A DNA stretch of 64,000 bases from Vicugna vicugna (lineage: Eukaryota). The translations under genes and the position numbers were made by a program. Location of the stretch: positions 434,001 to 498,000 of the forward strand of contig MU057398.1 of the NCBI GenBank assembly GCA_013265495.1, in the 5' to 3' direction. The notes beneath the pieces were generated by a model, which saw nothing but the letters and a program-made list of their open reading frames with translations, did no database searches and was not told the DNA's origin. This document shows positions 1-64,000 of this stretch, piece by piece (the stretch's first letter is position 1; each line of letters opens with the position of its first letter).

Positions 1-2443
<2,443 letters not shown>

Positions 2444-10816: not shown

Positions 10817-11182
10817 GACGGAAAGTGAGAAGCGCTGCACGTCCCGCCGCGCAGACACTGCTCTCGCGAGAGTTCGGCAGGGCACCAAGTACCGGGAGAG
10901 GGTGGGGGCCCGGCAGTGCGCACGCACGCGCCCGCGCCGGTTCCCACGCCCTCTTCCGGCGCCGAGAGCGCCGCCGCCGCCGCCGCCGCCATCTTGGGAG
11001 GGGGCGGCCAGCTGGGCCCCCGGTCTGGGGAGGGGACACGTCAGTGCTGCAAGTGACGTCACAGGCCCGCCCGGCCCGCCGGCTCCCGATTGGCTGCTGC
11101 GGCCGCTTACGCGTCGCGCTTCCTTGTCTGTTCCTCGTGTTCTGGGGAGTCGCTCTCTTTTTCTCTCGGCAGAGAAGAGGCG

Positions 11183-15055
<3,873 letters not shown>

Positions 15056-18891: not shown

Positions 18892-21800
18892 TCAGACGGT
18901 GGTGACGGAGAGGAGTGGGTTGTAGACCCGCGTGCCGTCAGCCGAGCGAGTGCCGTGGGCCAGCATCTCCTGGATGGTGATCCAGTTGTCCAGGATCTTC
19001 TTGTTCCGCTTCTTCATGGTTTTGCGGTGGCTCAAGGCAATGATGTTGAGCTCAGCCTTGCTTTCGCCATTCTGCTGCTCCCTCAGGCACTCCAGCCGGC
19101 TCTGCATCATGAACTCGCGCCGCTTCCGCTGCTCCCGGGCCCGGATCAGGTGCTGCTTCCGCTCCTCCTTGCTCCAATAGCGGCCCATCTTCATCTCGCT
19201 CACCGCGTCGTCGTCGGTGGTCATACCGCTGCGCTCCTCCCGGATCTTCAGGGCCCGGGCTTTCAGGAGGCGGTCGCGCACCGGTCGCTTGGCTACGTAG
19301 CGGGTCCCATCGCTGCGCACTTTGACCTTCCACTCCATGCGGGGCGCATCTGGGACTGTGGCCGCCGCCCCGCCCACCCGGGGGCCAGCAGCCAAACTCA
19401 AGGGGCCGTGGCCCAGCTCCTCCAGGCCACGAGGCGGGGCCAGTTGCATGCAGCTGTGGTAGTGCTCACCCTCCTGGCCCTGGGCACGGTGACGCCGAGA
19501 GAGGTAAGGGCTGCCTTCGGGGCCCGCCCGCTCCAGGGGCACCCCAGCCTTGGGGCTGCGACGGACACGCTCTTCTGCATGCTGCCTCCGGCCCACCTCA
19601 GGATCCCGGGAGAGGGAGCGGAACTTGGTGGGACTCCCCTGCGGGGGCGCGGCCTTGGGGTGGGTGGTGATAGGGGGTCCGGAGGGGGTCCGGTTCAAGT
19701 TGGAGTTTCCAGCCGTGGCCCGCCTCAGAGGGCTCTCCAGCAGGGGCTCCGTGAGCAATGGGGTGCTGCGGCAGCTCTCCCCCGTGTTGTAGGCGCTAGT
19801 GCTGTCCTTGTCCGACTTCTCGGGCAGCTCAGAGATGTCAGACAGCTCGTGCTTCTTGGGCTCGCTGGCCCCCAGGTCGTAGAGGCTCTCCTCCTCCAGC
19901 AGCCAGGCCTTCATGCAGCGCTCCCGCAGCTGCTGCATCTTCTGCGCCCGCAGGATGTTGCGGCACTTGAACTCCAGGTGCCGCAGCTCCTCCTCCAGCA
20001 CGGCCATCTCGTGGCCCACGCTCTCGTTGCGGTTGACGTCCAGGGCACCATGGCCGCCCGAGGCCCGAGGGAAGAGGAGGCCCAGCGGGTTGCCGTTCTC
20101 CAGGTGGCACTTGATTTCCAGTAACTCGCGGTAGCGCTCGTACTCTTCATCAGTGAGGCCCGGGACGTCGCCACCGCCGCTCCCCAGCCCTGCCCCATCG
20201 GCCAGCAGGGAGTCCATGCTGAAGTGGAAGTCGCGGCTCTGCAGGGCGTCCCCTTGCAGGCTGAACTTGCGCAGGGGCCCGGGCGTGTTGGTGGTGCTCA
20301 GGGGCTCGTCCCCCAGCAGGTCGTGTTCCGAGCTCTCCTCATTGCGGGTGCTCTCGTCAGTCCGGCCCACCCCGCTGTCCAACTCTTGGCTGTTGCTCAG
20401 GCCTGGTCCCACATCAGGAGCTCCTTTCTCCTCTTCGTTTCCAAGCTGAGGCAGACAGATGAGCCCCTCTTAGTCTGGGCCCCAGGGGTGCAGGCACCAC
20501 AGGAGGATGGTAAGGCTTTCCGGGGGTCCATCTCCCACCCCCCCCCCGCCCCTTCCCTCCTCCTCACCCTCCCCATGACTCACCCGCTCTTCCTCCTTCC
20601 TCACCTGCTGGGCAGGGGGGGACTTCAGCTTCCGCCCACGCAAATCCCCCTCATTCTCAGAGCCAAAGTCATCCAGGAAGTCATCCCGGTCACTGTCCTT
20701 CCACCGCTTGGCCAGCTGCAGAGACAGGTCTGTGCTGTCCCCACTGCCTTAAGAACCTCCCCAGACACCCCTCCAGTTGCCACTAGGTCCCAGCCCACTC
20801 AGCCGTCAGGGGCCAGAAGGGGAAACGGGCCCTGGGACACCGCCCACCCTCCATCAGCACCAGGTTGTTGGCATGTCTGTGCCCTCGTTAGCAGTTTTCA
20901 AGACAGAAAGTCTGATGTCAGGGGACCCAGGACACCCTGTGGACACACACACCTGACTCTCAGGCCGGGCCACCAGCAGGGAGATGTTGGTGTTCTCCTC
21001 CTGGCTCAGGATGGCCACTGCTTCTTCCCGGTTCTGGACGTCCACACCATTTATCTGTGGCAGGCCAAGGGACAATCAACAAGGACCACAAGGCTGGCTG
21101 TGGGGCAGGCCCCCGTTGAGCCACAGGGATCCCCTCGCAGGGCGCTCCTAACCTAACAGGCTCTTGAGTTGTGGTGAGAAGGAAACAAGGAGAAGGTGCC
21201 GGGGAAGAAGACAGCTGGGCCCGTGCAAAGGCACGAGTGCTCAGAGACCAGCTGCAGCAGGAGATGTGCTCACTTCTGGGGGACGGAGGGCAAGGCTGGC
21301 AAGGGGCCAGAGCAGCACAGGCCCTTGAGACCAGCAGATCCCACCAGCACACAGCAGCCACCCACGCAGTTGTGCAGGAGAAAGATGAGACCTAGCCCTG
21401 GATTCAGGCACGGCAGGATGCCTGGCATCCAGCTAGGCTCTCAGCAGGGGAGTGCGGGGATTGGCTAAGGGAGTTGGCGGGGCACTCAGCCTGCCTGCCC
21501 CACTCACCTGGATGATTCGGTCTCCCTCGCGGATCCGGCCATCTTTGGCTGCAATGCTATTGGGATTCACCTGCAAGGCACACGCATCACGGGGACTTGG
21601 CACCTTCCACGAAGGTGCCCTTTCGGTAGGAAGGGGTAGCCCTGCCTTGGGGACCCCAAAGCAAACTGGGGGCTGTTTTTTTAGCATGGGAAAGTATGGG
21701 AAAGTACCCAGACATCTGTCAGACAGGACGGAGAGAATGACCCCTGTGATCACCGAGAGGGCTGGCTGCAGGACGTGGGAGGGAGAACAAAGCCTGACCA

Positions 21801-24800
21801 GGACCTCATCCCGCCTGCCTGCTGCCCACTGTGGGCACAGGTCTCCTGAGGAAGACTGCCTGGCCAGACACACTGGAGCCATCGGCTGCCTTGGCCTCAC
21901 AAACTGGCATCAGGCATCCTTGTGATGCTAAGCTGGGCCCTTATGGGCAGCCTCAGAGCCCTGAGCAGTATGGCAAGGCTGTGGGGACAGGCTGGTGTGG
22001 GGATTCTTCACGTGGCAGATCCTGCCCCCACACCTGCTACCAGGGGAGCCCAGCTTCCTCCCTAGTGCTGGACAGATGGGCATCAAAGTCCCTCTGTGAG
22101 ATCCTAGCACACAACACAGGAAGGTGGCATGGAGCTCCACTACTTTTGTGAAGACCCCACTCCCGCACCCCACCTTCATACCTCCCCAACGTAGATGCCC
22201 AGGTCCTCCTCATCATCAGTGCGGTAGCAAACCATCAGGCCCAGCTTGTCCCGGTGGCTGGTTTTATATAGCTCCACCTCCTGCCACAGGGGGGGATAGG
22301 AGAAGCAGAGGAAGAAAGCCCCAGACACATGTGAGCAAGGTCACAGGCTGCAGGGGCGGCAGTTTCGGCCCAGCCCTCACTCCCAGGAGCATGTCACCTG
22401 AGCTGAGCTGAGTTTTCAAGGGCCTCTCTTCCCATCCCAAATGGTGCGTGTGTCTGGTGGTCTCCCCACCATGAAATGCTCAGACACACACAAGACACAT
22501 GGGACGCACAGGATACAGACATGTGCGGAACACAGACCAACATAGACTGACCCGACCCGTGCCCTCCCCGACTCAGCTCAACTTGACCCAGGAGCCTGAG
22601 TAATGGGCTACACACAGGAAAGGGCCACAAGGCCCAGCCTCCTGGGGGGCAGCAGGAGCCAGGCCTGAGCTGGGCTGCAGACAGCCATCCTGGGGGCCGG
22701 CTCCTGACGCTGGCCGCCCAGCTCACCTCATACTCCAGCTCGTCCATACGGTCTGCCTCCTGTGGGCCGCCCTCCATGAACTCCGCCGGGTCATAATACT
22801 CATGGCTGATGGGGGGGCTGCCCAGGAGAAGGGGGGCGTCAGGCTAGCCATCTGCTCCTTTCTCTCCCTAGCCCCAGCTCCCAGGCTGGCCAGTCCCAGT
22901 GCACTCAGCTTGGAGCCCTGCTCTGGGTGGCCCCTTGGAAGGAGGTGGCCCAGCTACCTCTTCTGGAACCCCTTCCTTCTGAGCTTCATGCATCCATGCA
23001 AAGACCGGGAATGCTTCCTGAACAGGAGTGCGAGGGCATCTGCACTGAGGACCCAGGAATGCCTAGCTCTCCCTGCCCTGTCCCACCCCACCCTGTCCCG
23101 CCCCCCAGCCCAGACTCCTCCCACCATGCCAGCCAGCAGGGACCAACTTCTCCAAAATGCGGGTACCCCTCCCACCCGGCCCTGGCCCCACTCATGCAAT
23201 GCCCCCAGGAGTTATCCAGGCCCTGGAGGACTGCTGGGGAGCGGAGGAGGACCCACTCTACCTCCAGGGATAGTCCTCCGTGTCCCGAGGCTAAGCTCGG
23301 CTGCTGCCAGCCCTGGGCCTACCTCTCTGCGGAGGAGGGATCCCGAGACAAGCTCCCTGCCGCCCGGGTTTAGACTAACAAAATGAGTCAGCGCTCACAG
23401 TCATGAGCCACCAGGACTGGATGAGAGGCCCTTCTTCCAAGTGGGCCAAAGAAAGAAGCCGAAGAGATGAAGGAAGTTCAGAGCACGGAGAGGAATGGGA
23501 CAGACAAGGATGCAAGAAGATTCAAGGGGTGATGCTTGTGAGGCAGAAGACAATGGGGCGGCAGAGGAGGAGAGAGGATGGAGGAGTAGGAGCGGAGGAC
23601 CTCAACCTTCCAGCAGCAAGGTCCCAGGATGGTACTCCCTTGGCCCTGGGGGTAGAGACAATGGGGAGCCTGTGTGTCAGACTCCCCTGGCCCTGTTTAC
23701 CAGCTGGCGTCCAGCCTGAGGCTACAGGCCCAGAGATTTCTGAGCCCTGGGGTGCCACAGTCAGCTCTGGAGGCCAAGGAGCGTACTTTCTGCCCGAGAG
23801 GGCAGCCAGTCAGGGTCTCCCCACCACACCCAGAGCTGCAACAAGGTAGCCTCTGAGTGGCATGGGGACGGCTGCGCCAAGTGGCGTGCCCTGTCTGGAA
23901 GCAGGGCCTGGGGCCCTCCTGAGGGCGACTCACAGCTCAGACAGGACATACGGCTCCAGGATGACCACAGGTGGGGTGGGCGGGTGCAGCTTGCCCAGCG
24001 CCATGATATGCTCGAAGGTGATGTCGGTCTGCGTGCCACTGTCCACCAGCTGCAGGTCATGGCAGGAGCTGTCCCCCCGGAGACGGGGACTGCGTCTCAG
24101 CACCTGGATCACCAGGGGCTCCTTGGAGGAGCGCAGGGCCTCCAGGGTTTGCTCCTGAGAGAGCTTGGAGAGCTCTTTCCCGTTTACCTGCAGCAGAGAC
24201 ACGCCCCCGTGAGGACACACCCCCATGAGCTCTAATCTTCTCAGCCAAGGAATCAGCCCTCTGCTCTGCTGACCCTGGTGCCTTCATTCCCAGGCGAATC
24301 CCACTTCTCAACCCTGCCCCAACACACTGCTGTCTGGGGTTCACAGGGCCACACCCTGAAGGCCGTGGTGACCTATGCCAGTGGGAGTCAGTCAACAAAT
24401 GGGTTCAAGTGGGAGGGTCGGAAGAGTAAGCAGACTCAAAGGATAAGATCTCTGTCCCCCAGGCAGCAGCGGCCTCACTGCAGAAGAAAGGCCAAGCCTA
24501 GGAGAGGTGCCAAGGAAGTGGGTTCCTGGTGGGCATCTCCCCTGGATCCTGACCCTGACAACCCATTTCGCAAATGAGGAGACTGAGGCTTGGCAAGACG
24601 AAAGGAGTGAGTAGGGTCATGAGCCAGGCTGGGCTGGTCAGAGTGGGAGACAGGGAAGGAGGCGGCCATCACAGGCTAGGGGCCCAGGAGAAGGCTGGAT
24701 TAGAGCAGCCTCAAGGGAAGAAGGGGTCCTCCTTGGTAGGGAGGCGAGCAGACTAAGGACGGAACAGAATTCCAGGCATATGTTATGGGGCCAGTGAGGG

Positions 24801-41575: not shown

Positions 41576-42520
41576 GGTGCTGGCCGGCGAGGGAAGGAGG
41601 GCGGGAACGGGAAAACGCCTTTCACTGACCTGTGTGCGGGACCTCGGGTCCCGGGCCGGGGCCGGGGGCCATACCCTAGCGCGGGAGGCGGGCCGCCTAG
41701 CGGGGGAGGGGGGCACGCCCCCGAGAAGGGGGCAGCTCCACGCCCTTTGGGTTAACTCTTAGCTGGCTGAGGCGAGGCGCGGGCATGCTCCCTCGCACCC
41801 GACCAGGAAAAAAAAGGGCAGCGGGGGATGGGCAAGCGCGCCGGGCGTTGCTTGGCTACAGGTCCCCAGGAGGCACGGGGTCGCGCCGGGCCGCTAGGGG
41901 CCGTCAGGGGCCGTGGGCCTCGCGCCTCCCCGCCCGCGGGGCCCGCCGCTGCCGCTGCCGCTGCCGCCTCCGACTCCCGCCCATGGCCACCGGCCCCGGG
42001 AGCCTGGCCCTCGCGCTTAGCGCGGCGGCCCGATCTGACTACTGGGGGGCGGCGGCGCGGCGGCGGGCCCCGCCCCCGGCCAGGCCCGCGCCCGCGCCCG
42101 CGCTCCCGCCTCGCCCGGATCTTCAGCTCCCTCCCGGGACGACGGGCACAGCGCGCGCGCCCGCGGCGGCGGCGGCGGCGGCGGGGGAGGGGCGCGGGGA
42201 CCGGGCGCACGCGCGCGGGAGAGGGGAGCGGGGCTGGGTGGGAGAGCGAGCTGCTGGAGGCCGCGGGAGCCGGCGCGGGAGGCCGGGGGCGGGGCCTTGA
42301 CGGAGGTGGGGGTCCCTGGTTCCCCGCGATCCCCGGCGTCGGGTCTCCGAGCACCCGGCACGTTACGTGCCGCCTGCGCTGTGCCAGACTGGGAGACGGG
42401 TCCTGTTTGGTGGAGCGCCTCCCGAGATTCCCTCAGAGAGCTCGGGACCTCGGGAGGGGGCCGTGGTTTCAGCCCCTTTCCCAGGTCCTCCGCACCGCAG
42501 CCCGAATGCCTCTACCCCTC
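40600..42520 (-). promoter_or_regulatory. PDZD4 CpG-island promoter and 5' region
   Basis: Extreme GC/CpG content around the first coding exon, a (GGC)n run near 42163-42184 and X-box-like GTTGCTATGCAAC 41135-41147. Confidence 0.85.
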
Positions 42521-43314
42521 CCTCCAGCTTCATTTTAATGACTGCTTCTCTCCTTCTACGGAGCCGTTCCTTCGCTGTCGTTGAAATGAACACCTTTGTT
42601 AAAATTTTTTAAAAATTCCTTTTCAATAAGGAGAAAAAAAAAAAAGCCATGAGGTGGAGGAGGGGGTTGTGGGGAGAGTCGACCAAGCTTGGGATGCCCT
42701 GGGGCTCTCGCGTGCTCAGGACTGGCCCGAGTGGGTCTCGCTGCCTACCTGTGTCTCTCTCAGCCCCACCCTGCGCTGAAGCACATCGCTTTAACGTTCC
42801 TTCCATCTCTCCCACGACCTATCCTCCCTTCTTGGACAAGCCTGGGGAGAGAAGGACTTTGCCTGGAAAGCGGCATCGGACTGAGGGCTGGATTCCCATG
42901 GGGTGCCAGGAAGAGCTGCCAATCCCAGGCCCTCTGGCTGCAGAAGATCACTTGATTAAGTTGTTGCATGGTTCATTTCCAGGCTTTGGCAAGTGATAGA
43001 ATCATTAACCACACAGGACTGTTTAATTAGACGGCAGCGGTTGGAGAAGGCTCCTCCAAAGCCCTTCTTGCCTCCCTGACTCCTAGTTTAGAGAACAGGA
43101 AGCAGAAACTGTGGAGCTTGCCTGGGGTCCGGAGAAGTTGAGACAGGGGCTAAGGGGAAAGGTGCATATGTTAGAAAGTGGTCACAGGGGAATGAAAGCC
43201 AGTACAAGAGTACATTCTCAAATTCGTTGGCACTCGCAGCTGCTGGGACTTGACCCTGCCAGGAGCTGGCTGGATGAAGTGCATCTCAGAATTGTCTGCC
43301 TCAGACCCAAAGAG

Positions 43315-48434: not shown

Positions 48435-49891
48435 CCTAGAATTGCTAAAGCATTACTGAAGAGAAAGAAAGAGGCTGGAGGAATAACTCTCCCAGACTTC
48501 AGACAATACTATAGAGCTACAGTCATCAAGACAGCATGGTATTGGTACCAAAACAGACATATAGACCAATGGAACAGAATAGAGAGTCCAGAAATGAACC
48601 CACAAACTTTTGGTCAACTCATCTTTGACAAAGGAGGCAAGAATATACAATGGAATAAAGACAGTCTCTTCAGCAAATGGTGTTGGGAAAACTGGACAGC
48701 AGCATGTAAAACAATGAAGCTAGAACACACCCTTACACCATATACAAAAATCAACTCAAAATGGATTAAAGACTTAAACATAAGACAAGATACAACAAAC
48801 CTCCTAGAGGAAAACATAGGCAAAACATTATCTGACATACATTTCAAAAATTTTCTCCTAGAAGAAATAAAAGCAAGAATAAACAAATGGGACCTAATGA
48901 AACTTACAAGCTTCTGCAGAGCAAAGGAAACCAGAAATAAAACAAGAAGAAAACCTACGGAATGGGAAAAAATTTTTGCAAGTGAAACCGACAAAGGCTT
49001 GATCTCCAAAATATATAAGCAGCTCATACGACTCAATAAGAAAAAAATAAACAACCCAATCCAAAAATGGGCAGAAGACCTAAACAAGCAACTCTCCAAG
49101 GAAGACATACAAATGATCAAAAAGCACATGAAAAAATGTTCAATATCACTAATTATCAGAGAAATGCAAATCAAAACTACAATGAGGTATCACCTCACAC
49201 CAGTCAGAATGGCCGTCATTCAAAAATCCAAAAATGACAAATGCTGGAGAGGCTGTGGAGAAAGGGGAACCCTCCTACACTGCTGGTGGGAATGCAGTTT
49301 GGTGCAGCCACTATGGAAAACAGTGTGGAGATTCCTCAAAAGACTAGGAATAGACTTACCATATGACCCAGGAATCCCACTCCTGGGCTTGTACCCAGAA
49401 GGAAATCTACTTCAGGATGACACCTGCACCCCAATGTTCATAGCAGCACTATTTACAATAGCCAAAACATGGAAACAACCTAAATGTCCATCAACAGGTG
49501 ACTGGATAAAGAAGATGTGGTATATTTATACAATGGAATACTACTCAGCCATAAAAACCGACAACATAATGCCATTTGCAGCAACATGGATGCTCCTAGA
49601 GAATGTCATTCTAAGTGAAGTAAGCCAGAAAGAGAAAGAAAAATACCATATGAGATCGCTCATATGTGGAATCTAAAAAACAAAAACAAACAAACAAACA
49701 AAAACAAAGCATAAATACAGGACAGAAATAGACTCATGGACAGAGAATACAGACTTGTGGTTACCGGGGGGGTAGAGGGTGGGAAGGGATAGACTGGGAT
49801 TTCAAAATTGTAGAATAGATAAACAAGATTACACTGTATAGCACAGGGAAATATACACAAAATGTTATGATAAATCACAGAGAAAAAAAAA
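48435..49891 (+). mobile_element. Young 5'-truncated L1 with an uninterrupted ORF2 C-terminal frame
   Basis: The frame is open from 48435 to 49676 ([22 protein letters not shown]...[18 protein letters not shown]...SLICGI*). Perfect 17-bp TSD aagattattttccatga at 48418-48434 and 49892-49908. Confidence 0.95.
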
Positions 49892-50777: not shown

Positions 50778-51244
50778 TGTGAAGGAAAAGCCCAGCTGGG
50801 CTAACAAGCTAAGTCACAAATCTAAGTGCAACAAGTGTCGGATTACTGATCTGAGTTCTGCTGGGCTAACTCATAAATCTGAAGTTTAGTGTCAGTCTAT
50901 TGGGCTAACGAGCTCAGTCACAAATCTAAGTGTGATAAGTGTCGGTTTACTGATATAAGTTCTGCCGGGCTAACTCGTAAATCCAAGCTCAACAAGTGTC
51001 AGTAACGTGATCTGTTCCAAATTGATAAGCTCCAGTGTACTGATTCCTTGCTTTTTGTTGTTTGAACCTTATTGGCTAATAGCCCCATACTTGTAATTAA
51101 CCCTATAAAACCTCATGTGCACGTCTTGGAGGTGCTCAGAGCTTCGGAGCAGAAGCCCCTCTGAGCCCGCCGGCGTAATAAATCTGAGTACTCCAACCCT
51201 CCGAGTGGTGCTTGTTTCTTGGCTGGCCTGTCATTTCCGTAACA
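50778..51244 (+). mobile_element. Isolated 467-bp LTR of the same family as the downstream provirus
   Basis: TGTGAAGGAAA...TTTCCGTAACA termini. By eye it is identical to 55840-56353 except for one 47-bp indel. Confidence 0.95.
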
Positions 51245-51590
51245 TTTCTATTTCTGTTCTCTTCTAGGATTTAACCACTCAAACTCTAGAAAACTCACTT
51301 ACCAGGATTTTGCCACCTACTCTGTTAAGACGGCCGTTCACCTCATTAGAAATGAGAGCAAGTCCTCTGACCACGCATGGTCTTGCTCCTTTTGACCTCC
51401 GGTTTGGGAGGCCTATGAATTTTGGTCTGAGACCAAGTTCTGCGCCTGATTTAACTGAATCCTTTCATGGTCATGCTCAGTACTCAAAAGTACCCTCCCC
51501 TCCCCCTGCCTGTTCTTACAGGCATCCAGGCCATCCTATTCACAGTAGTAGGTATTTAAATTACTTTAAGGATCACATTTATGAGGCAAG

Positions 51591-51695
51591 GAGGGCATAG
51601 CTCAGCGGTGGAGGGCATGCCTAGCATGCACAAGGTTCTGGCTTCAACCCCCAGTACCTCCATCAAAAATAAGCACATAACTTCCCCCAAAAAAA
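51591..51695 (+). mobile_element. Vic-1-like SINE
   Basis: 'gagggcatagctcagcggtggag...cttcaacccccagtacctccatc', with an A-tail. Confidence 0.8.
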
Positions 51696-52365: not shown

Positions 52366-52702
52366 TTTTTTTAAACATTTTTCATTGATTTATAATCATT
52401 CTACAATGTTGTGTCAAATTCCAGTGTAGAGCACAATTTTTCAGTTGTACATGAACATATATATATATTCATTGTCACATTTTTTTCTCTGTGAGCTACC
52501 GTTAAGATCTTGTATATATTTCCCTGTGCTATACAGTATAATCTTGTTTATCTTTTCTACATTTTTTTAATTTACTTTTTTGGGGGAGAAGGTCATTAGA
52601 TTTACTTATTTGTGTATTTTTTTAGAGGAGGTACTGGGGATTGAACCCAGGACCTTGTGTGCGCTAAGAATGTGCTCTACCACTTGAGCTATTCCCTCCT
52701 CC
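52366..52702 (-). mobile_element. Vic-1-like SINE (52580-52702) joined to an L1 3' end (52366-52560)
   Basis: Both are on the minus strand, and caagaaaaact flanks the composite at 52355-52365 and 52703-52713. Confidence 0.8.
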
Positions 52703-55361: not shown

Positions 55362-55839
55362 GAAAGATTTCTTAAATAGGACACAAAAGTACTAACCATA
55401 GGAGAATATATTGATAAATTAGTGTTTTCTGAGCTCTGAGGGCACTCAGCCAATTCGTTATTCTTCATGTCTTCAATGCATCTCTCCCCGCCCCCTGCAG
55501 TGTGACTTCTGCTCAGTTCCCATTCTCTTTACCCTCCTCCCCACCTCCCAGCCTGCCGCCCTACATCTCCAAGCTCTTGCTTTGTGCAAGGCATGTAGAA
55601 GAACCACTACTGGATGAGTTCCTCACCTACAGAAGCATACTTTGTTTCTGGTGTTTTCTGAGATTTGCTTCCCCTTGGTTGCTTTGCTGTGCTGTTCACA
55701 TATTAATTGCAGGTATCCCCTACATGGCTTCTGTTCTGTGTCCCTCCGATGTTCCCCAGGTCCTATGGCTCTTGCTGTCTGCAAGGGAGATTGGTTATAC
55801 CACTTTAGAGTGAACTCCGTACTTAGACAAAGTTCATTG

Positions 55840-56353
55840 TGTGAAGGAAAAGCCCAGCTGGGCTAACAAGCTAAGTCACAAATCTAAGTGCAACAAGTGT
55901 CGGATTACTGATCTGAGTTCTGCTGGGCTAACTCATAAATCTGAAGTTTAGTGTCAGTCTATTGGGCTAACGAGCTCAGTCACAAATCTAAGTGTGATAA
56001 GTGTCGGTTTACTGATATAAGTTCTGCCGGGCTAACTTGTAAATCTAAAGTTTAGTGTCAGTTTACTGGGCTAACAAGCTAACTCGTAAATCCAAGCTCA
56101 ACAAGTGTCAGTAACGTGATCTGTTCCAAATTGATAAGCTCCAGTGTACTGATTCCTTGCTTTTTGTTGTTTGAACCTTATTGGCTAATAGCCCCATACT
56201 TGTAATTAACCCTATAAAACCTCATGTGCACGTCTTGGAGGTGCTCAGAGCTTCGGAGCAGAAGCCCCTCTGAGCCCGCCGGCGTAATAAATCTGAGTAC
56301 TCCAACCCTCCGAGTGGTGCTTGTTTCTTGGCTGGCCTGTCATTTCCGTAACA
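55840..56353 (+). promoter_or_regulatory. Proviral 5' LTR (514 bp)
   Basis: Imperfect inverted termini, a 104-bp tandem repeat in U3 (55859-55962 and 55963-56066), ATTGG 56180-56184, TATAAAA 56213-56219 and AATAAA 56286-56291. Confidence 0.93.
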
Positions 56354-56357
56354 TTTC

Positions 56358-56375
56358 TGGAGGCCCCAGCGAGAT
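56358..56375 (+). other. Primer binding site complementary to tRNA-Thr(UGU)
   Basis: TGGAGGCCCCAGCGAGAT, 4 nt after the LTR CA. It is the reverse complement of the mammalian tRNA-Thr(TGT) 3' end as recalled (ATCTCGCTGGGGCCTCCA). Confidence 0.85.
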
Positions 56376-57633
56376 ACAACCACGCCGGCCCCTTGAGCCG
56401 CTGGACTGGTGGCTCCGGCCGACCGGGGGACGGGACTCCGGCAGCGAACGAGGAGGCGCCACCCGACAGTATTCCGGGTTCTCTTTCGTGACGGCAACTC
56501 GGCCCCCCGGGTGGCTGGGCTACAACCAGAGCCAGACTCCGTGGAGGGACGGACAGACTCACCAGGTGGCCGTCCGGACAAGGTAGGATCCCCCGGGAGG
56601 AATCAGGTCCTGTCCCATTGGACAGAAGAGGAGGCTGATCCCCTCCTACAGGCTCTCCGTCTGATGGTAACTCAGACGGGGAAATCAGGAATCAGGTCAG
56701 GAATCAGGTCCTGTCCCAGTGGACAGAAGAGGAGGCTGATCCCCTCCTACAGGAAATAGGATATTGGTATTGGTGGGAGGAATGTTGTTAACCTCTGTGT
56801 GTGTGTGTATGTGTGAGTGAATGAGCGGCCTGTGAAGCATGCGATCAGGCTCGAGTTTGTAGCTCCACGGCATTCTGCTACGGAGTTCGAGTGAGTCCCA
56901 ACCTGCGGTTCCGTGGTGACCTCATACGGCTCAGGGCGGTATCGGTCCCTCAGGGTCCCGATCGGAGTCAGCGGCTTATACTGACCCGCCAAAGCTAAGA
57001 GGCACCTTCGTCCCCGCGAGGGGAGCGGCCAGGCGGACGCAACGAAAACCCTCCCTTGTCTTGTCTGCGACACCGGCACAGGGTGGCTACACTGGGAGGG
57101 AAAAGGACATAGCCAATGAGTCAACGCCCCTGTGCCCTTGGAGGCTAGGATGCTATTTCTTTGAGAAAGTCTCCTACCTGACTCTGTCACAGAACACCCG
57201 AGACTTATTGTTCCCCTACTGAACTGACCCAAGTAGTGCCCCTTTTGCCTAGCCCCAGACACCCAGGACGTAAGTTTAGAAGACGAATTCCTTCAGGACC
57301 GGGCTTGCCCAGCCCTGGAGGTCCCTTTTCTAGTCCATTTGTTTTGCCATCTGCCGTCAGTCCCACGCCCCTGATACGTTAGTTCAGAATATAGAGAGGA
57401 TTTAATGAAGAAAGTCCCTGAAACTGCTTGAGGCCTTGAGATCCAGAGACATCAGCTGAGACTGGAACCCAGAGTCCCTGACCAAGTTAGCCTTAAAACA
57501 ACTCATAGACCCAGCAAGAGAGCAGTCTCTCTGGGAACTCCGGTGTTTTGAAGAGTGAAGAAGAAAAAGATATAAAGGCTACCTTCCCAAACATCTAAAG
57601 CAACAGAACTATTATCCTTAAATATCTAAAAGA

Positions 57634-59220
57634 ATGGGAGGCTCTAAGTCAAAACCCACCACTCTAGACTGCATGATTAAGAATTTCAAAAAGGGGTTCT
57701 CAGGAGACTATGGAATTCGAATGACCCCTGGCAGGCTGCGCACTTTGTGTGAGCTTGAATGGACTGCCTTTGGAGTCGGGTGGCCCTCAGGAGGAACTCT
57801 GGACCTAGCAACAGTGCGAGCAGTCTATCAAATAATCACTGGAACCCCAGGCCACCCAGATCAATTCCCTTACATTGACTCCTGGCTGAATATCGCCCAG
57901 ACTCTACCCCCATGGATTCGGTTTTGCTCAAATGGACCTGGACAATGCAAGATATTAGCAGCTCAGCCAGTCCAGGCCAAAAAGACAGACAGAAAAAAAC
58001 CGATTTTCCAGGGAGACGCAGAAGACGAGATATGCCTGCCCCCTCCATATGCCCCCAAGGCACAAACACCTCCAGTCCCATTGGAGACACCACCACCCTC
58101 TGTGTCACCACCTCCCCAACCTGAGGACCCAGAGGCAGAACTCAGCCCCCAGCCTGAGCCGGTAGGAAGGAGACTCCGCTCAGCACAAGCCGTGAAGCCA
58201 GCACCACCGGCCCTCCAAATGCCGCTGCGGGAGACACAAGGGCCACAGCAAGTTGGGGAAGACGGGACTGTTCAGCCTGGGCACCCCGTACTCTACTACC
58301 AACCCTTTAGCACCACAGACCTTCTCAATTGGCGCCATCACACTCCTTCCTACTCTGAAAAGCCACAGGCTATGATTGACCTCATAGAGTCTATCTTCCA
58401 TTCTCACCGGCCCACCTGGGAAGATGTCCGCCAGCTGCTTCTGACTCTTTTCAATACAGAGGAGAGGAGACGCATTCTCACTGAAGCACGAAAATGGCTG
58501 CAGGGCCGAGCCCCTGGGGACACAATGGATGTTGAGGCGTGGGCCATGACACGTGCCCCTGACACCAGACCAGATTGGGACTTTAACACTCAAGAAGGAA
58601 GAGAAGCACTACGTGAGTACCGGGAGGCCATCCTACAAGGGCTAAAAGCAGGAGCCAAGAAGCCAACTAACATGTCTAAAACGACCACAGTGACCCAGAG
58701 GCCAGACGAAACCCCCACTGACTTCTATGAGAGACTGTGTGAAGCATTCCGAGTCTACACTCCTTTTGATCCTGAGGCCCAAGAAAACCAACGGATGGTC
58801 AACGCTGCCTTCGTAGCCCAATCATACCCAGATATACGCCGGAAACTCCAAAAACTGGATGGATTCGCAGGGATGAACGCTACACAGCTGCTGGAAGTAG
58901 CAAACAAAGTTTTTGTAAACCGAGAACGGGAAGCCCAACGAGAAGCAGACCAGCGAATGAAGCAGAAAGCCGCGCTCCTTGCAGCAGCCCTGGGGAAAAC
59001 AGGCTTCAGCCAGAACCCTGCACCACCCCGGAAGAGGGGACCCCAACCATGGATGCCCCTGGGCCGAGACCAATGTGCATACTGCCGGGAGACTGGGCAC
59101 TGGAAGAACGAGTGCCCAAACAGAAAGGATGGAAAGAGAGCACTCCCTAAAAGGCCTACTTATCAGCTGGAGCCACCAGCCAGTAATCACATCGGACTGG
59201 CTGGGGTTAACTCAGAATAG
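57634..59220 (+). CDS. gag: Retroviral Gag, 528 aa
   Basis: Myristoylation-type start MGGSKSK, PPPY late domain, major homology region (QRPDETPTDFYERL) and one CCHC knuckle CAYCRETGHWKNEC. Ends in TAG. Confidence 0.96.
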   Translation: MGGSKSKPTTLDCMIKNFKKGFSGDYGIRMTPGRLRTLCELEWTAFGVGWPSGGTLDLATVRAVYQIITGTPGHPDQFPYIDSWLNIAQTLPPWIRFCSNGPGQCKILAAQPVQAKKTDRKKPIFQGDAEDEICLPPPYAPKAQTPPVPLETPPPSVSPPPQPEDPEAELSPQPEPVGRRLRSAQAVKPAPPALQMPLRETQGPQQVGEDGTVQPGHPVLYYQPFSTTDLLNWRHHTPSYSEKPQAMIDLIESIFHSHRPTWEDVRQLLLTLFNTEERRRILTEARKWLQGRAPGDTMDVEAWAMTRAPDTRPDWDFNTQEGREALREYREAILQGLKAGAKKPTNMSKTTTVTQRPDETPTDFYERLCEAFRVYTPFDPEAQENQRMVNAAFVAQSYPDIRRKLQKLDGFAGMNATQLLEVANKVFVNREREAQREADQRMKQKAALLAAALGKTGFSQNPAPPRKRGPQPWMPLGRDQCAYCRETGHWKNECPNRKDGKRALPKRPTYQLEPPASNHIGLAGVNSE

Positions 59221-59284
59221 GAGAGACCGGGCTCCCTGCCCCTGGGCCCCCGGGAGCCCAAGGTCAAGATGTTTATAGGGGGCC
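59218..59284 (+). promoter_or_regulatory. gag-pol readthrough signal (UAG, 8-nt spacer, pseudoknot)
   Basis: S1 is GGGCTCCC 59229-59236 with GGGAGCCC 59252-59259. S2 is GGCCCCC 59245-59251 with GGGGGCC 59278-59284. Loop 2 is 18 nt. Confidence 0.88.
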
Positions 59285-62200
59285 AACCAATGACTTTTAT
59301 GGTAGACACAGGAGCAGAGTATTCTGTGGTGACCCAACCTGTAGCCCCCCTGACCAAAAAAAAGGCGACTATTATTGGGGCTACTGGGGACTCAACTGCC
59401 CGCCATTTCTGCCAACCACGATCCTGTCAAGTAGGGGGCCATCTAGTGACACATGAATTTTTATATTTGCCTGAATGCCCAATACCATTGCTTGGAAGAG
59501 ACCTTCTGTCTAAATTGGGGGCACAAATTACCTTTGTCCCCGGGAAACAGGCACATCTGACCCTACAGGGAGAGTCTATGATTCTAGCCATCTCAGTTCC
59601 CCGAGAAGAAGAGTGGCGTCTGTATGAGAGCAGAGAACTCCAGGAAAATCCTTGCAAACTCCTGGAAGAGTTTCCATTAGTCTGGGCTGAAAATGGACCA
59701 CCAGGCTTGGCACATAATCAGGCACCACTGGTGATTGACCTCAAACCTGGAGCCAGCCCAGTCAGACAGAAGCAATATCCCATGCCTCGAGAGGCCCACC
59801 TAGGAATCCAGAAGCATATACAGCGCCTCAGACAAGAGGGAATCCTAACTGAGTGCAGATCTCCCTGGAACACACCGTTGCTCCCAGTGAAGAAAGCAGA
59901 AGGAACAGATTATAGGCCAGTGCAGGACTTACGAAAAGTAAATGAAGTAGTCACTACAATACATTCAGCAGTGCCAAATCCATACACTCTTCTGGGCCTC
60001 ATTCCGGCAGATGCCAAATGGTTTACATGCCTAGACCTTAAAGATGCTTTCTTCTGTCTTCGACTCTCACCTGTGAGCCAGCCCATATTCGCATTTGAAT
60101 GGGAGGATCCCCATACAGGAGGAAAAACTCAACTGACATGGACACGTCTCCCCCAAGGCTTTAAAAACTCGCCCACCTTGTTCGGAGAGGCACTAGCCGC
60201 AGACCTTGTAAAATTCCCTGGGGAAACATTGAACTGTACTCTGCTCCAGTATGTGGATGACTTGCTGTTAGCCAGCCCCAGTGAAGAGGACTGTTGGAAA
60301 GGAACTCGAGCCCTCCTAGGGTTACTCCAAACAACTGGGTACAAGGTCTCATGGAAAAAGGCCCAGATCTGCAAAAAGACAGTCAAATACTTGGGATTTA
60401 TTATCTCAGAGGGACACCGAGCCCTAGGACCAGAACGAAAACAAGTTATTTGTGCCATACCCAGACCGGAAACAAAAAGGAAACTGAGAGAGTTCCTGGG
60501 CGCAGCTGGGTTTTGCCGGATCTGGATCCCCGGATTTTCAAGAATAGCCAAGCCCCTCTACGAAGCAACTGCTGGATCAGGAAAAGAAACCCTCAAATGG
60601 GAAACTAAACAAGAAAATGCCTTTAGGCAATTAAAGGAACTACTAACCCAAGCCCCAGCACTAGGCTTACCAGATGTAACACGAGAGTTTAATCTGTTTG
60701 TACATGAAAGAGACCAAACTGCTCTTGGAGTCCTAACTCAGAATGTGGGGCCATGGCAGCGCCCTGTGGCTTATTTATCTAAAAGACTGGACCCTGTAGC
60801 ATCAGGATGGCCACCCTGTTTACGGGCCCTCGCTGCCACAGCCCTCCTGGTCAATGAGGCAGACAAACTCACACTGGGACAGACTTTAAATGTAAAAGTG
60901 CCCCATTCTGTGGTGGCCCTGATGAATGGCCCAGGTTACAAATGGATAACTAACACAAGGATGACCCACTACCAGGGGCTTCTATGTGAAAATCCAAGAG
61001 TCCGTCTAGAGACTGTGCAAACCTTAAACCCAGCCACATATTTGCCTGAAGGGGAAGGGCAGCCTGACCACAACTGCGAAGAAATCGTTGAAGAGGTGTA
61101 TGCAAGCAGGCCTGATCTAACCGACAAGCCCCTGCAAAACCCAGACCTGGAACTTTTCACAGACGGCAGCAGTTACATGCAAGATGGACAACGGCGAGCA
61201 GGTTACGCTGTAACAACAACCCGAGAGGTAATAAAGGCAGAGTCCCTTCCCCCAGGATGGTCTGCTCAGCGAGCAGAGATCTGGGCACTGGTCCAGGCAC
61301 TAAGGGAAGGGAAAGGAAAACGAGTCAATATATACACTGATTCCAAATATGCATTTGCAACCTTGCATGTACATGGAGCCATCTATAAGGAGAGAGGACT
61401 TTTGACTGCTGGGGGAAAAGAAATCAAAAACAAAGAAGAAATTTTACAGTTACTGGAGGCAGTATGGGATCCAAAGGAAGTGGCCGTTATTCACTGTAAG
61501 GGACATCAAAGAGGAAATGACCCTGTGAGCCAGGGGAACAGGCTAGCTGATCAAAAGGCAAGAGAAGCAGCCGCCTGGGAACACTCAGTAATTAAAGTTA
61601 TGGCAGCGCCAGAGCTACCCACTGCCCCAGAATATAGTCATGATGAAAACAAGTGGGCACAGGCTGAACGAGGAGAGAAAAGAAAGGACGGATGGTGGAT
61701 CATGACGGATGGAAGGGTTTTCATCCCAGAACGACTAGCTTATCGTTTAGTCCAACAACAGCACGAAGCCACACATATGGGAAAAACAGCTTTAGAGGCC
61801 CTCTTAAAGCGATATTTCCTAATTTCTCGTCTCCCTACTCTATGTGCATCAGTTTCCCAACGCTGCTTGCTCTGTGCACAAAACAATCCAAAACAAGGGC
61901 TCACTGGGCCAATGGGAATACAACGATGTGGATTGGCTCCCTTTGAAGATTTAGAAGTGGACTTTACTGAACTTGGGCCCAGTAAGGGATATAAGTACCT
62001 GCTGGTTTTCGTCTGCACCTTCACAGGGTGGGTAGAGGCCTACCCCACCAGGACAGAGAAAGCAAGGGAAGTGACAAAGGCTCTTCTCAGGGATGTTATC
62101 CCTCGATTTGGAATGCCTACCTCCATCGGGTCTGACAATGGACCCGCCTTTGTGTCAGAAATTGTACAGCAAGTGGCAAAGGCACTGAGCATCCGCTGGA

Positions 62201-62856
62201 ACCTACACACAGCATACCGGCCTCAAAGCTCAGGGAAAGTAGAACGAATGAACAGAACTCTAAAACAAATTATAGCTAAAATCAGCCAAGAAACCCAGCT
62301 TCCCTGGGTGGACATTCTACCCCTGGCTCTGTTGCGAATTAGATGCACCCCAAGATTTAATATTGGGTACTCTCCCTTTGAAATCCTCTATGGGCGACCG
62401 CCACCTTTAGTCAGGATGAGAAACCCCACCCCAGAAATAGGAAATCTAGGGCTCCACCAACAACTGTTGGGACTAGGAAAAGTACTACGAGAAGTTTGGG
62501 GTTGGGTGATAGAGAAAACCCCCATTTCATTAGGGGTTCAAGTGCATCCCCATAAACCAGGTGACCAGGTATGGGTGAAGGATTGGAAAAAGGAACCTCT
62601 CAAACCAACATGGAAGGGACCATATTTAGTGGTATTAACTACTCCTACAGCTGTTAAAGTTGCAGGAATCGTCCCTTGGATCCACCACTCCAGAGTCAAG
62701 AGAGCAACTGCACCTCAGACAGAGGGTCCCTGGAAAATTGAGAGTGTCCCGGGAGACCCGCTCAAGATCAAGATCAAGAGGGACCAGAAAAGGATCGACG
62801 AGCCCTGCTCTAGCCACACCCGGAAGCTGGCTAGTCAACGCACGGCCGAAGCTTGA
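59221..62856 (+). CDS. pol: Retroviral Pro-Pol, in frame with gag via UAG readthrough
   Basis: Protease VDTGA, RT LPQG and YVDD, RNase H FTDGS and YTDS, integrase HHCC with D-D-E (VDFT, SDNG, VERMN), and GPY. No interruptions. Confidence 0.97.
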   Translation, partial: ERPGSLPLGPREPKVKMFIGGQPMTFMVDTGAEYSVVTQPVAPLTKKKATIIGATGDSTARHFCQPRSCQVGGHLVTHEFLYLPECPIPLLGRDLLSKLGAQITFVPGKQAHLTLQGESMILAISVPREEEWRLYESRELQENPCKLLEEFPLVWAENGPPGLAHNQAPLVIDLKPGASPVRQKQYPMPREAHLGIQKHIQRLRQEGILTECRSPWNTPLLPVKKAEGTDYRPVQDLRKVNEVVTTIHSAVPNPYTLLGLIPADAKWFTCLDLKDAFFCLRLSPVSQPIFAFEWEDPHTGGKTQLTWTRLPQGFKNSPTLFGEALAADLVKFPGETLNCTLLQYVDDLLLASPSEEDCWKGTRALLGLLQTTGYKVSWKKAQICKKTVKYLGFIISEGHRALGPERKQVICAIPRPETKRKLREFLGAAGFCRIWIPGFSRIAKPLYEATAGSGKETLKWETKQENAFRQLKELLTQAPALGLPDVTREFNLFVHERDQTALGVLTQNVGPWQRPVAYLSKRLDPVASGWPPCLRALAATALLVNEADKLTLGQTLNVKVPHSVVALMNGPGYKWITNTRMTHYQGLLCENPRVRLETVQTLNPATYLPEGEGQPDHNCEEIVEEVYASRPDLTDKPLQNPDLELFTDGSSYMQDGQRRAGYAVTTTREVIKAESLPPGWSAQRAEIWALVQALREGKGKRVNIYTDSKYAFATLHVHGAIYKERGLLTAGGKEIKNKEEILQLLEAVWDPKEVAVIHCKGHQRGNDPVSQGNRLADQKAREAAAWEHSVIKVMAAPELPTAPEYSHDENKWAQAERGEKRKDGWWIMTDGRVFIPERLAYRLVQQQHEATHMGKTALEALLKRYFLISRLPTLCASVSQRCLLCAQNNPKQGLTGPMGIQRCGLAPFEDLEVDFTELGPSKGYKYLLVFVCTFTGWVEAYPTRTEKAREVTKALLRDVIPRFGMPTSIGSDNGPAFVSEIVQQVAKALSIRWNLHTAYRPQSSGKVERMNRTLKQIIAKISQETQLPWVDILPLALLRIRCTPRFNIGYSPFEILYGRPPPLVRMRNPTPEIGNLGLHQQLLGLGKVLREVWGWVIEKTPISLGVQVHPHKPGDQVWVKDWKKEPLKPTWKGPYLVVLTTPTAVKVAGIVPWIHHSRVKRATAPQTEGPWKIESVPGDPLKIKIKRDQKRIDEPCSSHTRKLASQRTAEA

Positions 62857-63043
62857 GGAAAGCCCAACGCAGCTGTTAAATATATTTCTTTTGTGCTCCC
62901 TTGCCTCTTTCCTTGTTTTCTATACCAGTCTGCGTACTAGCAGTGGGGCTAGCTAGCGCCACCCCACCTGACTGGAACATAGGCCATAAAATCCTGATAG
63001 CTATTTTATATCTTCTTATAATTAGTGCCATCACCGCAGCATC

Positions 63044-64000
63044 ATGTCTAAGATAATCATAAGGCTGATGTTACTAATGCTAATGTCCTCACTCTCCTTG
63101 GCTGTACAGTGCACCTGCATGGAACCGGGTGACAGGTGGTCCATATACCGGCCTGTATTTTCAGCTTATACTTATCAGCCGAGTCAATGCTATGACTCCG
63201 CTTCAGAGTGCACATATCAGGGAAAATCCTACTGGATTGGCACAATTAAGGCTTATTATGTATCTAGCATCAAATGCTATGGCACACCCGGCAAGCTGGT
63301 GTGCTGGACCAAGCAAACACATTATGGGATGAGTGATGGAGGGGGCGTACAGGACCAGGCACGCCGGCAAGCAGTCCAACAAGCAGTCCAGAGGCAACAC
63401 CGGAAGTTATTACCTACCCGGAAGCCAATAAAACTTCCATCTTTAGCCGAGCCTCGGGATCTGGATCCACAAATAAATGGGCTGTTAGCCGCAGTCCATG
63501 GGATTCTCAATCATTCCAATCCAGACCTGGCTAAAGATTGCTGGCTATGCTTGCGTCCTGGCCCCATCCAGCACCTGGCTTTACCTCTGACAAACCTCAC
63601 TAAGACTTTCACCACAACTCATAGCGATGCCGTTTCTACCACTAGGAGTTCCAGGCTGAACTGGGTACAGCTCGCCTACAAGGCACCAGAATGTTATTTC
63701 AACAATGGAACTAATCCTTTAGAGGGCAATCTAACTATAAATCAATGTATTAAAACCTCTCACTGTATGGGTCTAGGGTGCCAACCCACACAAAGATGGT
63801 GTTCTAATAACGGGACTTATTTTGTATGTGGTGAATTTGCCTACCGGTGCCTCCCTGCCAGATGGGCAGGGTTATGTGCTTTGGCTTATCTCACTCCCCG
63901 AATGGACATTATGCCTAATAATCAAAGTCTGCCCATCCCTGTCATAACTCACCAGCATCCACGGAGAATAAAACGAGCTATACAATTGATCCCCTTGCTA
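63044..64000 (+). CDS. env: Retroviral Env: signal peptide, complete SU and start of TM, open to the window end
   Basis: Hand translation gives 319 codons with no stop: MSKIIIRLMLLMLMSSLSLAVQCTC...CWTKQTHYGMSDGGGVQDQAR (motif 63332-63364)...DCWLCL (CWLC 63539-63550)...RRIKR|AIQLIPLL (furin site 63965-63976). It is missing from the ORF track because no stop falls inside the window. Confidence 0.93.
   Translation, partial: MSKIIIRLMLLMLMSSLSLAVQCTCMEPGDRWSIYRPVFSAYTYQPSQCYDSASECTYQGKSYWIGTIKAYYVSSIKCYGTPGKLVCWTKQTHYGMSDGGGVQDQARRQAVQQAVQRQHRKLLPTRKPIKLPSLAEPRDLDPQINGLLAAVHGILNHSNPDLAKDCWLCLRPGPIQHLALPLTNLTKTFTTTHSDAVSTTRSSRLNWVQLAYKAPECYFNNGTNPLEGNLTINQCIKTSHCMGLGCQPTQRWCSNNGTYFVCGEFAYRCLPARWAGLCALAYLTPRMDIMPNNQSLPIPVITHQHPRRIKRAIQLIPLL

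Follow-up and report, generated by a model that had tools for sequence, protein, structure and literature searches.

A window of 64,000 nucleotides (nt) from the vicuña, Vicugna vicugna (contig MU057398.1, positions 434,001–498,000 of the forward strand, assembly GCA_013265495.1), ends in the 5′ part of an endogenous retrovirus (ERV), which occupies positions 55840–64000 on the plus strand; all coordinates given here are those of the window, and features of the provirus lie on the plus strand. The element is a class I (gammaretrovirus-like) ERV, of which about 8.2 kb are visible. Its parts follow each other in the order long terminal repeat (LTR), primer-binding site (PBS) for tRNA-Thr, long leader, gag, UAG stop codon, pro-pol, a gap of 187 nt, and env, and all visible parts are open.

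Structure of the Provirus

The junction between the host flank and the LTR is clean: the LTR starts with TG directly after unique flank (55839/55840). The last four nucleotides of the flank, ATTG (55836–55839), would be the left member of the expected 4-bp target-site duplication, and the left flank does end in ...CATTG, as stated in the first-pass annotation of the window. The 5′ LTR (55840–56353; 514 bp, TG...CA, with imperfect terminal inverted repeats) is bounded by the start and the end of its identity with a second, sister LTR described below. Its U3 region contains an enhancer-like tandem repeat with a period of 104 nt in 2.4 copies (55858–56109; Tandem Repeats Finder score 364, 82% matches). 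Pattern matching finds a candidate TATA box, TATAAAA (56213–56219), and, in R, a putative polyadenylation signal, AATAAA (56286–56291). A scan of the LTR for bacterial promoters and terminators was set aside, the element being eukaryotic.

The PBS (18 nt, 56358–56375) follows the terminal CA of the LTR after 4 nt and corresponds to tRNA-Thr(UGU). All of its positions are complementary to the 3′-terminal 18 nt of human tRNA-Thr-TGT-1-1 in the sequence given in PMC10359600, which bears out the 18-nt PBS noted in the first pass; the same 18-mer as in this match is contained in the tRNA-Thr probe given in PMC12820529. The leader is unusually long, about 1.26 kb, with 1258 nt between the PBS and the gag ATG (window 56354–57633). 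It carries a candidate major splice donor, AAG/GTAGGA (56580–56588, located by eye), and two 55-nt direct repeats (56598–56652 and 56699–56753), which are identical at 54 of 55 positions and 101 nt apart. Ahead of its ATG, the gag frame is open for four codons only, hence there is no glyco-Gag-type extension.

Three plus-strand open reading frames (ORFs), measured from stop to stop, span 57622–59220, 59221–62856, and 63026–64000, the last being open at its 3′ end. The gag gene (57634–59220) comprises 528 codons and a TAG stop codon (59218–59220) and encodes matrix (MA), a PPPY late domain, capsid (CA, p30), and nucleocapsid (NC) with one CCHC box; the corresponding Pfam matches are Gag_MA (E 1e-14), Gag_p30 (E 1.6e-59, profile positions 2–199 of 201), and zf-CCHC (E 2.7e-4). 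The pro-pol gene (59221–62856; 1211 codons, ending in TGA) is in the same frame, separated from gag by the single UAG and open from 59221 onwards. It encodes protease (PR), reverse transcriptase (RT), RNase H, and integrase (IN), with Pfam matches to RVP, RVT_1 (2–205 of 205), RNase_H (3–140 of 141), Integrase_H2C2, rve (4–102 of 102), and MLVIN_C (E 1.6e-19); the scan yields two RNase H-like domains. Located motifs are MGxxxS, PPPY, the major homology region, CCHC, DTGA, LPQG, YVDD, TDGS, HHCC, and D..D..E. The ORFs, domains, and motifs together confirm the earlier description of gag (528 codons), pro-pol (1211 codons), and the visible env as uninterrupted, with intact catalytic motifs.

A candidate signal for readthrough of the UAG is located at 59218–59285. 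It consists of an 8-nt spacer, an 8-bp stem 1, and a run of C in the loop that pairs with a run of G 18 nt downstream, this second stem being identified by eye. The Rfam family GP_knot1 spans the same positions at full model length, starting on the gag stop codon, and this is the sole match to that family in a scan of 14 kb against all of Rfam. The architecture thus fits a readthrough signal of this type, while the sequence is divergent, and a function in readthrough is presumed.

Age and Spread of the Family

The sister LTR (50778–51244, plus strand; 467 bp) belongs to the same family, has the same orientation, and lies about 5 kb upstream. The two LTRs show 0 substitutions over 467 aligned bases and a single gap of 47 bp in the U3 tandem repeat; the first-pass annotation was therefore right to report a sister copy without visible substitutions (0/467), and the copies are nevertheless not fully identical, since 47 bp of the U3 repeat are missing from the sister. 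The 104-nt repeat (55858–56109, compared with 50796–50966) is thus a case of copy-number variation in an enhancer-like repeat of otherwise identical LTRs.

If the sister and the 5′ LTR are taken as independent copies of one template, then, at the mammalian neutral rate of 2.2e-9 per site per year, the absence of differences places the common template at no more than about 1.5 million years (My; 95% upper bound), with a median near 0.3 My. All 13 CpG dinucleotides of the LTR (13/13) are kept in both copies. The observed/expected CpG ratio is 0.43 for the whole provirus, 0.68 for R–U5, and 0.71 and 0.31 for the first and second half of the leader, respectively, compared with 0.15–0.19 for the flanks; the values for R–U5 and the first half of the leader agree with the abundant unmutated CpGs reported earlier for R/U5 and the leader.

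The closest relatives of the window Gag are two Vicugna pacos RefSeq proteins, 99% identical to it and encoded on two separate contigs, 63.3 and 38.8 Mb long. The window Gag differs from them at 6/499 and 5/528 residues, respectively. Between the two RefSeq copies themselves there are 11 differences in 499 positions; each is private to one copy, and none occurs in the window Gag. A protein of Camelus bactrianus shows 89% identity over 30% of Gag.

We also compared sampled 31-mers of the stretch with assembled sequencing runs. In 14 of the 24 listed runs (DNA; four organism labels, six studies) the share of these words present is 0.83–0.84, which is not readable as presence or absence of the locus, because the contigs drop copy-specific variants. 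Three rows show shares of 0.25–0.29: two are RNA runs labelled as reproductive system (0.28–0.29), and the type of the third is guessed and may be DNA. RNA-run shares of 0.13–0.18 (rows X18–X20) were not used.

The substitution-free sister LTR, the retained CpGs, the Gag copies with 99% identity, and the near-identical sequence in 14 DNA runs support activity of the family during the past one to two million years, with the provirus being a copy that shows little or no decay. The same four lines of evidence uphold the first-pass view of a young provirus from a recently active family. A general survey of transposable elements (PMC8605555) gives 2455 ERV1 elements for alpaca vs. 1142–1584 for Camelus, and places a burst of LTR retrotransposons in the alpaca lineage at about 1–4 million years ago. 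Beyond this survey, whose figures and supplements may include the family, we found no description of young camelid ERVs in the literature.

The sister LTR itself is not framed by a 4-bp target-site duplication, the left flank ending in TTAT and the right flank starting with TTTC. The sequence TTTCT follows both the sister LTR (to 51249) and the U5 of the provirus, where it is formed by the 4-nt spacer and the first PBS base; the chance of such a 5-base identity in a T-rich flank is, by our own estimate, roughly 1 in 100. Most simply, the sister would be what remains of a second provirus, namely its 5′ LTR; a deletion starting at the PBS would have taken the rest of that provirus with its 3′ LTR, and part of the flank as well. 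No second internal region is found near it in the window (tblastn with three proteins gives self-matches only), and the sequences flanking the two LTRs are dissimilar. A location of the sister LTR inside an old ERV, considered because of an integrase-like stretch seen by eye near 51300, was not confirmed by a Pfam scan of 49.7–55.8 kb: 0/64 ORF pieces match with E up to 0.01. The scan covered 64 of the 69 plus-strand pieces, the five pieces inside the LTR being left out.

Relationships of Gag and Pol

The Pol search scored 7999 candidates, of which 560 were significant and 120 were listed. Among the 560 significant matches there is no close full-length relative. The best full-length match among those listed, from a Logan contig, shows 58% identity, and a UniParc fragment shows 89% identity over 60% of the query. 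Other listed matches are fragments from the bat Cnephaeus nilssonii (62–63%), ERVs of lizards and geckos (53–56%), reticuloendotheliosis virus (REV, 52%), and murine leukemia virus (MLV, 50%).

In the Pol tree (33 rows, i.e., the window and 32 of the 120 listed matches; midpoint root, no outgroup), the window pairs with the UniParc fragment and then with the bat ERVs (support by the SH-like approximate likelihood-ratio test, SH-aLRT, 100). The group formed by the window and the bat ERVs adjoins ERVs of squamates, amphibians, birds, and alligator. The window is placed outside the group of MLV, porcine endogenous retrovirus (PERV), REV, and other mammalian ERVs, with a support of 100 for the separating split. 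Gag identities agree with those of Pol: 66% to Rhinolophus ferrumequinum and 42% to REV.

Matches to a Pol pattern in viral contigs (n = 11) include no relative, and the 11 Pol loci from metagenome contigs show only 44–55% identity and are not of this family. An exact 40-nt U5–PBS pattern has 0 matches in metagenome contigs.

The Envelope and a Related Camelid Gene

The env gene starts at 63044, 187 nt after the end of pol (62856), and a candidate splice acceptor for it, a polypyrimidine tract followed by AG, was located by eye at 62886–62928. The first 319 codons (63044–64000) are visible, and the gene is cut by the end of the window. They encode a hydrophobic signal peptide, a surface unit (SU) of the RDR type with six N-glycosylation sequons and CWLC, the furin site RIKR (63965–63976), and the first eight residues of the transmembrane subunit (TM), i.e., the start of the fusion peptide. 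The Pfam match to TLV_coat extends up to the window end.

The RDR receptor-binding domain is defined by three cysteine motifs (PCXC, CYX5C, and CX8-9CW) together with SDGGGX2DX2R (PMC1524976; PMC12584738). The last of these is present in the window Env as SDGGGVQDQAR (63332–63364), and so are CYX5C and CX8CW, while the first cysteine motif, QCTC, departs from PCXC in having Q for P. Env residues 42–311 match the solved Syncytin-1 chains 8ouh and 8ouj (E 3.6e-26). As judged from its motifs, the Env surface unit is thus assigned to the RDR (syncytin-1/RD114-like) type. Due to these motifs and the homology to Syncytin-1, the amino-acid transporters ASCT2 and ASCT1 are the likeliest predicted receptors; the SDGGG motif is reported to be needed for binding of syncytin-1 to ASCT2 (PMC1524976). 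By sequence, the provirus would accordingly combine an RDR-type env with a gag-pol backbone unlike that of either MLV or REV. The one bat protein compared, the chimeric P0169, gives no SU match to the window Env.

The protein search with Env returned six proteins only (2432 candidates). The best match is a 418-aa protein annotated as syncytin-1 or syncytin-1-like, whose alpaca, dromedary, and Bactrian camel versions (P0206–P0208) fall into one 90% cluster and are encoded on contigs of 25–29 Mb; by our own count, about 24 of the 418 residues distinguish the alpaca version from that of the dromedary. The protein ends shortly after CX6CC, hence it has no membrane anchor. Since the gene is common to Old World and New World camelids, it is far older than the provirus, and an env of the lineage of the provirus was captured before the split of the two camelid groups and has stayed open since. 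That the 418-aa protein blocks the receptor of the young family is speculation.

Genomic Neighborhood

On the minus strand, the window contains a PDZ-domain gene with a terminal exon of 525 codons (18892–20469). PDZ half-domains are seen in exons 20857–21075 and 21436–21909, both below the Pfam cut-offs (2 of the 94 ORF pieces scanned). The first named protein cluster matched by the terminal exon is "PDZ domain containing 4" (score 0.75), which is a lead only. GC-rich stretches with long ORFs on both strands are located at 10560–11762 and 41700–42600 and are probably CpG-island promoters. The GC-rich ORFs at about 41.7–42.5 kb suggest the CpG island of the PDZ-domain gene; with the island there, the provirus lies about 13 kb upstream of this gene and in divergent orientation. 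The first-pass placement of the provirus beside PDZD4, upstream and divergent, therefore holds for a minus-strand PDZ-domain gene at about 13 kb, the name PDZD4 being a lead.

Kinase-like exons are seen at 678–2301 (plus strand), with a weak Pkinase match at 1438–2301 (E 2.6e-4). We take these exons to be SRPK-like, which would fit SRPK3 adjoining PDZD4. An open frame of 413 codons (48435–49676, plus strand) resembles, by eye, what is presumably the C-terminal part of ORF2 of a LINE-1 element. Two tRNA-like matches, at 51591–51662 (plus strand, 25.8 bits) and 52626–52698 (minus strand, 29.4 bits), are probably host tRNA-derived short interspersed elements (SINEs).

Interpretation and Alternatives

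We consider it probable, with good confidence, that positions 55840–64000 hold the first 8.2 kb, counted from the 5′ end, of a class I provirus in the germline of a South American camelid, and that this provirus belongs to a multi-copy family which was still inserting within the last 1–2 My or so. Its expression would proceed from a transcription start in the LTR downstream of the TATA box. Reverse transcription would be primed by tRNA-Thr(UGU); Gag-Pro-Pol would be produced by pseudoknot-stimulated readthrough of the gag UAG, and Env from a spliced RNA with the donor near 56582 and the acceptor near 62928; and the RDR-type surface unit of Env would be expected to bind ASCT2/ASCT1.

Several observations weigh against this interpretation or its parts. 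The visible part stops at 64000, ahead of most of TM, the polypurine tract, the 3′ LTR, and the right flank with the second copy of any target-site duplication. The sister LTR, having no target-site duplication, is not a clean independent insertion, and its identity to the 5′ LTR could have arisen through gene conversion. The CpG ratios of the coding regions (0.34–0.42) do not allow decay to be judged without a reference value. The exact Gag sequence of the window is not found in a collection of 15 billion proteins. The highest 31-mer share in any run is 0.84, and the contigs are blind to the occupancy of the provirus locus. With regard to the readthrough signal, the GP_knot1 match scores 25.8 bits against a gathering threshold of 67.7 (E 0.1 in the 14-kb scan, 0.0022 for 301 nt), and RNAfold recovers the 8-bp stem 1 after the 8-nt spacer with an energy no better than that of shuffled sequences (z 0.27). 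Of the intact readthrough pseudoknot claimed in the first pass, the full-length GP_knot1 match at the gag stop codon is retained; its score is below threshold and its z value is not significant.

The visible genes and cis signals are all intact, and the number of U3 repeats varies between two otherwise identical LTRs, as is also seen for enhancer repeats in replicating gammaretroviruses. These observations, together with the absence from the window Gag of all 11 differences private to the RefSeq copies (0/11) and the occurrence of 0.28–0.29 of the words in two reproductive-system RNA runs, are what one would see if the provirus were a complete, infectious, insertionally polymorphic copy of a retrovirus still invading the germline. 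We regard this as unlikely, while giving it some weight: roughly a tenth of what makes up a typical provirus lies out of view, TM and the 3′ LTR among it, the word shares of the RNA runs reveal neither the part transcribed nor the source locus, and no report of an exogenous camelid gammaretrovirus was found in the literature. The label "replication-competent" would rest solely on the open frames in about 8.2 kb of a partly visible element.

Apparent youth might also result from gene conversion of the LTR of an older, fixed insertion with its neighbor, or from local duplication. Two LTRs in the same orientation only 5 kb apart are a favorable substrate for conversion, and LTR elements with gene-conversion tracts are tabulated in PMC8605555, according to the title of the table. 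LTR conversion would not, however, explain why the 5.2 kb of gag-pol and the roughly 1 kb of env have stayed open, or why the leader has kept a CpG ratio of 0.71; the alpaca copies elsewhere are 99% identical in Gag; and the two LTRs have dissimilar flanks. An older insertion of this kind is therefore very improbable. An assembly artefact, or a somatic or contaminant integration with a germline that lacks the provirus at this site, has next to no likelihood in our view. The oddity of the sister LTR, with no target-site duplication, and the lack of any run with more than 0.84 of the words would be compatible with it; however, contigs of a multi-copy family are expected to drop copy-specific words, the junction of unique flank and TG is clean, and the family is plainly germline, given the RefSeq copies on two other contigs and the 14 DNA runs.

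The preferred reading of a young germline provirus can be extended to a bolder scenario, to which we assign a decidedly small chance. Here, an RDR-type retrovirus whose gag-pol has bat and reptile affiliations and lies outside the classical mammalian gammaretroviruses would be engaged in an ongoing or very recent invasion of the South American camelid germline, with loci still polymorphic and transcribed in reproductive tissue; the anchorless 418-aa Env would have been taken up long ago from this viral lineage and would today restrict the virus by blocking its receptor.

How a retrovirus becomes established in a germline can be followed in young ERVs whose genes are open, natural experiments that are rare. 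They have been studied in koala, mule deer, dog, sheep, and mouse. Camelids would contribute a livestock host; an RDR-type envelope combined with an unusual gag-pol backbone; and a candidate pairing of a young virus family with an ancient, conserved, truncated env gene that derives from the same lineage and is carried by the same hosts. Copies of the family could be used as markers of the history of alpaca, llama, guanaco, and vicuña. At the present locus, an LTR with a variable enhancer-like repeat lies at a distance of about 13 kb from what is probably the CpG island of a PDZ-domain gene.

Comparison With Known Systems

The provirus is an element of a well-known kind, a young mammalian ERV, and such young elements are already known in other mammals. 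Koala retrovirus (KoRV) is one recently active, insertionally polymorphic mammalian ERV. Recent activity and insertional polymorphism are likewise described for CfERV-Fc1(a) in canids (PMC6407205; PMC10727363) and CrERV in mule deer (PMC8662619). Similar to these three, the camelid family is young and gamma-like, has open genes, and is present as near-identical copies in an outbred mammal.

The 418-aa camelid gene shows 72% identity to the window Env over 319 residues, and the stretch around SDGGG is nearly unchanged. Unlike the young provirus, it is a single conserved host locus, common to Old World and New World camelids.

The nearest named relatives are bat ERVs (Cnephaeus nilssonii P0016 and P0020; Rhinolophus ferrumequinum Gag P0127), together with squamate and amphibian ERVs. 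The bat ERVs, with 62–63% identity in Pol over 57–79% coverage and 66% in Gag, form the sister group, yet they are still distant.

With MLV and PERV, the provirus shares gag and pol in one frame, the UAG with a downstream candidate pseudoknot of GP_knot1 architecture, Gag_MA, Gag_p30, a single CCHC box, PPPY, and the MLV-type C-terminal domain of IN. It differs from them in Pol (50–51% identity), in the PBS for tRNA-Thr, in the 1.26-kb leader, in having no open frame upstream of the gag ATG, in an env that does not overlap pol (187-nt gap), and in a pseudoknot that scores well below the family threshold.

Retroviruses of the RDR interference group with gamma-type backbones include RD114, baboon endogenous virus (BaEV), and REV/spleen necrosis virus (SNV). 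The SU encoded in the window shares CYX5C, CX8CW, SDGGGX2DX2R, CWLC, and the furin site with this group and with HERV-W/syncytin-1. Differences from the group are seen in QCTC in place of PCXC, in the identity to REV of 52% in Pol and 42% in Gag, and in the position outside REV and MLV in the Pol tree.

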